DNA from: Escherichia coli O157:H7
GTDB lineage: Bacteria; Pseudomonadota; Gammaproteobacteria; Enterobacterales; Enterobacteriaceae
Length of the DNA stretch: 64,000 bases
NCBI RefSeq assembly: GCF_013167455.1
Contig: NZ_CP038328.1
Reading direction: 5' to 3' (one strand)
Part shown: in pieces, positions 40,104 through 40,912 of the stretch
Layout: the number at the start of each line of letters is the position of its first letter
How positions within the stretch are numbered: position 1 is the first letter of the stretch
Notes under the pieces: model-generated
Told to the model about the DNA's origin: nothing
Databases searched by the model: none
Seen by the model: the letters and a program-made list of their open reading frames with translations, nothing else
Translations under genes and position numbers: made by a program

Positions 40104-40490
40104 TCACCACCTCGCCACGACCAAATCCAAATAAGTCAATTGCACCTTCTCAATCGCCATTTTGTCAGTAAGCGTACAGCCTGAACTGATGGTATCTTCA
40201 CCATCAATGACAACGGTGATCGCAATTTTACTGACGTTCGCCGGAACACGATCCAGTGCTATCTCAATGCTGGCCTGCTGCGAACCGGTAACGAGCCTGA
40301 CTGCCCCCTCAGGAGAAGACAAATTATTATAAAAGATAAAGTCAGAATCGCCACTGACCTTTCCCTGAGCATTAAGCATGAACAGGCAGGTATCGGGTTC
40401 GCCTTTAAAGCCGGATTTGGCAGGGTACTGAAGATTCAGCCTGATCGTAGATTGCTGAAGGGGTATGTTTTGTCCGGATTGTAAATTCAT
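40104..40490 (-). pseudogene. terF: TerD-domain protein, probably truncated terF
   Basis: 128-aa ORF with [10 protein letters not shown] but shorter than a complete TerD domain (about 190 aa). Confidence 0.55.
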
Positions 40491-40871
40491 ATTAACTCTC
40501 CTGATTTTTGATTATTATTAATGCGCAGCGTTTATATATGTTCCCTAGGCTTAGTTCTGGACGCTGGATATTCGGTGAGGCGTAAATATGGTATGACACC
40601 ATTTTTCATAACGCTGAAGTTTCTATACCTGTTGAATTTGAATTTTCATTGACCGGGTATCTTATTTTCCAGGGCCCGTTCCTTCATAAGTCGCAAAAGT
40701 AACATATATCCGAAGGGCATGCTGTTGATATCAGACACGGAATACTGGCTTTAACCAGCAACCACAGATAAACCCGGGGCCTGCATAAAAGGTTCATGCC
40801 AGAATTAACATAGCTCTGCTTTCTGCCCCCCCCCTTTCCCATATTCACCCGTTGATAGCGGATCGATACCC

Positions 40872-40896
40872 AAAAAAAACCCCGGCATTGCCGGGG
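40872..40896 (-). terminator. Rho-independent terminator downstream of terE
   Basis: Minus strand reads CCCCGGCAATGCCGGGG followed by TTTTTTTTG. Confidence 0.7.
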
Positions 40897-40912
40897 TCAG
40901 ACTCAGCGTCTT

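Follow-up and report, generated by a model that had tools for sequence, protein, structure and literature searches.

A truncated terF remnant and a length-variable C tract downstream of terE in the tellurite-resistance island of Escherichia coli O157:H7

Main finding

The terF gene of the O157-type ter cluster is most probably (a probability of about 0.8) the dead 5' stump of a 413-residue gene, with a neutrally drifting microsatellite upstream of it. We analyzed 64,000 nucleotides of contig NZ_CP038328.1 from E. coli O157:H7, referred to as the window, which is the O157-type tellurite-resistance/adherence island of E. coli (SpLE1 or OI-43/48 type); a DNA search returned E. coli O157 chromosomes with 100% identity over the region. 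The breakpoint in terF, the loss of its domains, the conservation of the terminator that follows terE, the polymorphism of the C tract and the lack of promoter elements flanking that tract were observed directly. Public annotation already contains the truncation, and the remainder of the finding is ordinary. A sequence-only reading of the region had proposed either a pseudogene or expression subject to tract-length variation; it is half right, in that terF is a pseudogene and tract-controlled expression is unsupported. The features are listed in Table 1.

Table 1. Features of the terE-terF-iha region, with positions counted from the first letter of the window
Feature	Position	Strand	Basis or remark
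iha adhesin gene	37500-39590	+	
iha-linked DNA with IS66-family transposase fragment	39591-40167		98-99% identical to DNA 3' of iha in ter-less E. coli
IS66-family transposase pseudogene	39808-39958	-	RefSeq note "frameshifted; incomplete"
Foreign 26-codon tail and stop of the 128-aa ORF	40104-40184	-	No homology to terF; covered solely by the identical E. coli cluster
Junction filler of 17 nt	40168-40184		Flanked by iha-side homology, which ends at 40167 (JJ1887), and terF homology, which starts at 40185
Remnant of terF (codons 1-102 of 413), covering the N-terminal two thirds of TerD	40185-40490	-	Protein and nucleotide homology to intact terF
Shine-Dalgarno AGGAGAG of terF, 5 nt 5' of ATG	40496-40502	-	Read from the sequence; invariant in alignment A2
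terE-terF spacer, 422 bp	40491-40912	-	Also present in the ter clusters of islands and of IncHI2/IncF plasmids; columns of alignment A2 average 92% identity
C9 homopolymer (G9 on the ter coding strand), hypervariable microsatellite	40826-40834		Tract-length survey; longest G/C run in the window
Predicted intrinsic terminator ending the ter operon, with its stem at 40878-40898 and a U8 tail	40872-40898	-	9-bp stem, 7 G-C pairs
terE, 191-aa TerD-family protein, last intact gene of terZABCDE	40913-41488	-	Pfam TerD 1-186/187, E 3e-85; RefSeq WP_000301248.1 at the equivalent position
terZ	44882-45463	-	First of terZ, terA, terB, terC, terD, terE

Extent of the terF remnant

An ORF of 128 aa with an ATG start occupies 40104-40490 on the minus strand. 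It lies at the orthologous position of terF, 3' of terE and behind a spacer that is collinear with those of the O104:H4 and plasmid clusters, and the DNA from 40185 to 41000 matched ter clusters whose terE is followed by a 1242-nt gene annotated as "vWA domain-containing protein" or "TerF". The whole ORF had previously been taken for 128 aa of a TerD fold; its length stands, and its first 102 residues are derived from TerF, whereas the last 26 are foreign. Protein comparison showed that residues 1-102 are identical at 102/102 positions to the TerF of O104:H4 (WP_001053347.1), a 413-aa protein with TerD at 1-161 and a vWA-TerF-like domain (PF10138) at 212-412. The 413-aa forms were taken from genome annotation, not from the protein search. 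Alignment with the intact terF genes of O104:H4 and of an Enterobacter plasmid, the comparison that the sequence-only reading had suggested, showed that homology ends with codon 102, whose last base is 40185.

The Pfam TerD match covers residues 1-99 of the ORF, corresponding to profile positions 3-115 of 187, so that the complete TerD domain (PF02342, 187 positions), which intact TerF matches from 3 to 187, is absent. The vWA-TerF-like domain PF10138 was not found in the ORF by domain search, and the stump gave no hit in NCBIfam. Compared with the intact TerF of ter-type islands and IncHI2 plasmids, the window copy has the same position after terE, the same spacer, the same Shine-Dalgarno sequence and the same ATG, and it lacks residues 103-413, that is, the end of TerD, the linker and the vWA domain. 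Essential parts of the gene are thus lost relative to its intact orthologues, at a breakpoint (40185/40184) with foreign DNA. Lacking the final third of the TerD beta-sandwich as well as the entire vWA domain, the predicted product is probably an inactive, non-functional remnant. The stump shows no signal of decay as yet: it retains its Shine-Dalgarno sequence and ATG, and its 102 codons are identical to those of intact terF. It could still be translated.

Recent RefSeq records of EDL933 and ATCC 43894 annotate the gene as a 306-nt pseudogene, a "TerD family protein" that is incomplete and lacks its C-terminus. The stump is still a CDS in many RefSeq records.

Junction with iha-side DNA

The DNA beyond the breakpoint belongs to a different module. 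A DNA search with 39600-40167 matched the sequence following iha in ter-less E. coli, and the junction between terF and this DNA is common to 502 complete genomes. Everything beyond codon 102 of terF would have been deleted in a rearrangement that introduced the iha module together with its IS66-family remnant, so that the ribosome-binding site, the ATG and the 102 codons of terF would now run into foreign DNA and reach a stop 26 codons later. The rearrangement was probably mediated by an insertion sequence.

Loss of terF is not confined to this junction. Three further independent disruptions were present in our sample (UTME-3, NCTC10444 and Z1323CEC0006), and in O121:H19 terF was lost independently and replaced by a hypothetical gene together with an IS3 transposase (PMC9729726). 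These losses in other STEC islands resemble that in the window in that the ter cluster is eroded at its distal end, in association with mobile elements, and terZABCDE is intact; they differ in their breakpoints and in the elements involved, the O157-type junction consisting of the iha module and the IS66-family remnant.

PMC8123226, with reference to Kormutakova 2000, describes terF as dispensable for tellurite resistance, and a plasmid carrying terZABCDE with terF deleted conferred an MIC equal to that of the wild type (PMC11003894). Because terF is dispensable for this phenotype, its loss would cost nothing measurable for tellurite resistance. A literature search on terF transcription and locus tags found nothing relevant. 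The designation "terZABCDEF" is routinely cited for O157:H7; the cluster actually contains just a 102-codon stump of terF. Since the O157-type gene is a stump, "terF-positive" calls by PCR or BLAST do not indicate a functional TerF. Strains of this type are natural terF-null backgrounds that are still tellurite resistant.

Terminator downstream of terE

The terZABCDE genes would form a single minus-strand operon, running from a promoter-like site upstream of terZ (45556-45529, with 10/12 matches and an extended TG) to the terminator after terE. The latter, already described as strong in the sequence-only reading, is borne out by folding: the hairpin has a predicted energy of about -17 kcal/mol, and the 50-nt stretch containing it gave z = -3.6 relative to shuffled sequences, none of which folded as well. 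The T8 run appears as A8 on the plus strand (40872-40879). Among the minus-strand terminator-like sites between 40000 and 46000, this is the sole GC-rich hairpin with a long T run. With its GC-rich stem-loop and U-tract 3' of the stop codon, the predicted structure has the features of a Rho-independent terminator; like those at the ends of other operons, it consists of a GC-rich 9-bp hairpin and U8, lies 14 nt past the stop codon and is in no way unusual, except that the ancestral cluster has a further gene, terF, beyond it.

The terminator was invariant in 7/7 aligned island and plasmid variants, and its T run was 8 nt long in 17/17 surveyed loci. It is not specific to the truncated copy: all relatives examined have it in front of an intact terF. 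In Klebsiella, Buttiauxella, Erwinia and Enterobacter species, terE is followed by a comparable GC-rich hairpin and U-tract, and in some of these the gap between the hairpin and the ATG of terF is just a few tens of nucleotides. The predicted terminator is ancestral. The comparable hairpins preceding terF elsewhere suggest that ancestral terF receives attenuated read-through or has a weak promoter of its own.

Length variation of the C tract

The uninterrupted C9 run lies in the intergenic region, exactly where it had been reported. A G/C run of at least 9 arose in 99/300 first-order Markov simulations of the window; a single C9 is therefore not improbable from composition alone, and what goes beyond chance is the measured variability of the tract between strains rather than the run itself. 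We surveyed 60 records spaced evenly along the ranking of 663 matching records. The tract is not invariant: 18 of the 60 share the length found in the window, and 42 differ from it by -2 to +14 nt. Among the sequenced examples, those from iha-junction islands carried pure G7, G8, G9, G10, G11 or G12, and islands with an intact or otherwise disrupted terF carried G6CG6 to G6CG16 and, in one case, G7CG9. The 31 sampled records of the truncated type comprised C9 and C8 (11 each), C10 (5), C11 (2) and C12 (2). A pattern scan of metagenomes found 5 contigs, which overall showed G8 and G9; one contig with an intact terF had G9. Tract-length alleles follow clades, and both island copies in the EDL933-type strain ATCC 43894 are G8.

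For comparison, we followed a C8 tract elsewhere in the same island (16673-16680). The C9 tract differed from the window in 20/31 truncated-type rows, whereas the control differed in 5/22 near-identical genomes, by +/-1 in each case. In more distant islands the control was longer by 2 nt. The control lies directly upstream of an AAAGGAG Shine-Dalgarno sequence, with the ATG of a small acidic ORF at 16697.

The tract displays the repeat-length polymorphism expected of SSR contingency loci, and it would accordingly be conceivable that it is a phase-variation switch that tunes terF by slipped-strand mispairing and survives in O157 as a vestige. This is very unlikely. The tract is indeed polymorphic with both truncated and intact terF, at total lengths from 7 to 23 nt, and varies about three times as often as the C8 control. 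However, it lies 336 nt upstream of the terF ATG and 37 nt beyond the tail of the terminator, and promoter scans at 9/12 and 8/12 matches detected no sigma-70-like hexamer pair spanning or adjoining it, so that it is located neither in a promoter spacer nor in the reading frame of a controlled gene. Conservation within the spacer is lowest in the zone around it (40801-40871), where identity to plasmid relatives is 70-82%, compared with 86-93.5% in the remaining spacer and 93-98% in the coding flanks. At the site of the tract the plasmid relatives have GGGGGCCGGGCGTTTT or a similar, interrupted sequence without a homopolymer. The alleles are associated with clades and are identical in both island copies of EDL933, and in an O103:H2 strain with an intact terF the tract is occupied by the 1.45-kb ISEc20. 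The suggestion that tract length governs terF expression thus finds no support.

In Neisseria and Haemophilus, phase-variable promoters are controlled by poly-G or poly-C tracts between the -35 and -10 elements. The tract studied here resembles them in being an uninterrupted G/C run that varies in length from strain to strain; in contrast to them, it is located neither between hexamers nor within an ORF, precedes a dead gene and is not maintained as a homopolymer in relatives. We consider it a slippage-prone microsatellite that shows no sign of control and probably drifts neutrally. The C9 run would act as a hotspot of replication slippage where the spacer is least constrained, its length drifting between lineages with no regulatory consequence. 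The variability relative to the C8 control is compatible with neutral, length-dependent slippage and is no proof of neutrality. In the window, any effect of the tract on terF is moot. For lineages with an intact terF, there is a very slim chance that the hypervariable G tract is a tunable element setting transcription into the gene; it might act through read-through or through a G-rich structure of the non-template strand together with three upstream GGG runs, and, if so, TerF (a TerD-vWA protein) would be an accessory to the ter stress system with variable expression.

It is very unlikely that the length variation is mostly an artefact of homopolymer sequencing or assembly. Differences of +/-1 in G/C runs of 8-10 nt are typical of errors in long-read assemblies, the commonest alternative lengths here are C8 and C10, and some of the +/-1 differences may be assembly errors. 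Against a general artefact, the adjacent T8 run did not vary, the tract ranges up to 23 nt with an internal C marker, and the metagenome contigs show the same G8 and G9 forms. Moreover, a second sequence difference was present in 7/7 rows with the C8 tract and, in EDL933 and ATCC 43894, was sequenced as an independent SNP creating TGA at codon 103. Taken with the rate at the C8 control, the constancy of T8 indicates that the tract-length variation is real, and it is large for E. coli. The tract could be used as a minor typing marker, and its variability calls for caution in interpreting indels in the terE-terF intergenic region.

An ORF spanning the tract (40684-40848, 54 aa) was considered and rejected, as its frame is broken by the tract lengths and by 1-nt deletions in the Enterobacter plasmid.

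ISEc20, an IS110-family element of about 1.45 kb, was found inside the C tract in O157:H7 PV15-279 (truncated terF) and O103:H2 12009 (intact terF); the insertion coordinates are about 861-866 in L104 and 3142-4602 in L112. In 12009, C5-6 is left over on the left side of the element and C6 on the right. With two strains carrying the element there, the tract looks like a preferred target of this sequence-specific insertion sequence.

The truncated form among strains

In the protein database search, coverage over the full length of the 128-aa ORF was provided solely by an identical E. coli cluster with 189 member sequences; all other matches ended at about residue 102-107. Apart from this junction-bearing cluster, the search yielded no independent natural homologue of about 128 aa and otherwise only fragments. 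Full-length homologues of about this size would have spoken against a pseudogene; the intact protein has 413 aa, and the pseudogene reading holds. The identical protein, WP_001053349.1, occurs in O157, O145, O111 and porcine ETEC.

Codon 103, the first of the foreign tail (40182-40184), is TCA in the window, FDAARGOS_293, O145, O111 and UMNK88, and TGA in EDL933/ATCC 43894 and AR-0430. In one O157:H7 clade (EDL933) the TGA leaves an ORF of 102 codons, and in the sampled rows it accompanies the C8 (or C7) allele of the tract. The change from TCA to TGA in the EDL933 clade indicates that the foreign tail is not maintained.

That the 128-aa ORF encodes a functional short TerD-like protein kept by selection in EHEC is the least probable alternative that we weighed, a highly improbable one: the ORF is open, has a strong Shine-Dalgarno sequence and is identical across these serotypes, but it is cut within the TerD domain at profile position 115, its tail is unrelated DNA that the EDL933 clade has removed, it has no equally long homologue outside the junction-bearing cluster, and the identity between serotypes reflects a recently shared island, not selection.

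Other elements of the terE-terF spacer

An Rfam scan of 39600-41600 at E<=1 returned sub-threshold matches only, which were due to the terminator hairpin. RNAalifold applied to seven spacer variants gave an unfavorable covariation term and just 2 compensatory pairs, indicating that the spacer contains no structured RNA.

A candidate leader ORF of 36 codons, MVSYHIYASPNIQRPELSLGNIYKRCALIIIKNQES, occupies 40492-40602 on the minus strand, and its TAA stop ends 1 nt before the terF ATG (TAA-T-ATG). It is open in 6/7 spacer variants, and in the seventh a TTG second codon is a possible start. Its synonymous and nonsynonymous variants number 6:8, compared with 2:11 in the other two frames. A Citrobacter plasmid has lost the ATG, and two plasmids carry a frameshift in the tail. 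The candidate ORF is a weak lead only.

The start of this candidate ORF is overlapped by a degraded palindrome (40588-40606, minus strand), a decayed copy of the perfect 19-bp palindrome ATATGGTGTCACACCATAT found in Enterobacter and IncHI2 spacers, which could be an operator or hairpin for terF.

In other Enterobacterales (L012, L014, L030, L007 and L010; upstream of locus position 2501), the spacers that follow the terminator are about 20 to 190 nt long and show no relation to the 422-bp E. coli/IncHI2-type spacer. Since the spacers elsewhere are shorter and unrelated, the 422-bp spacer appears to be a lineage-specific acquisition.
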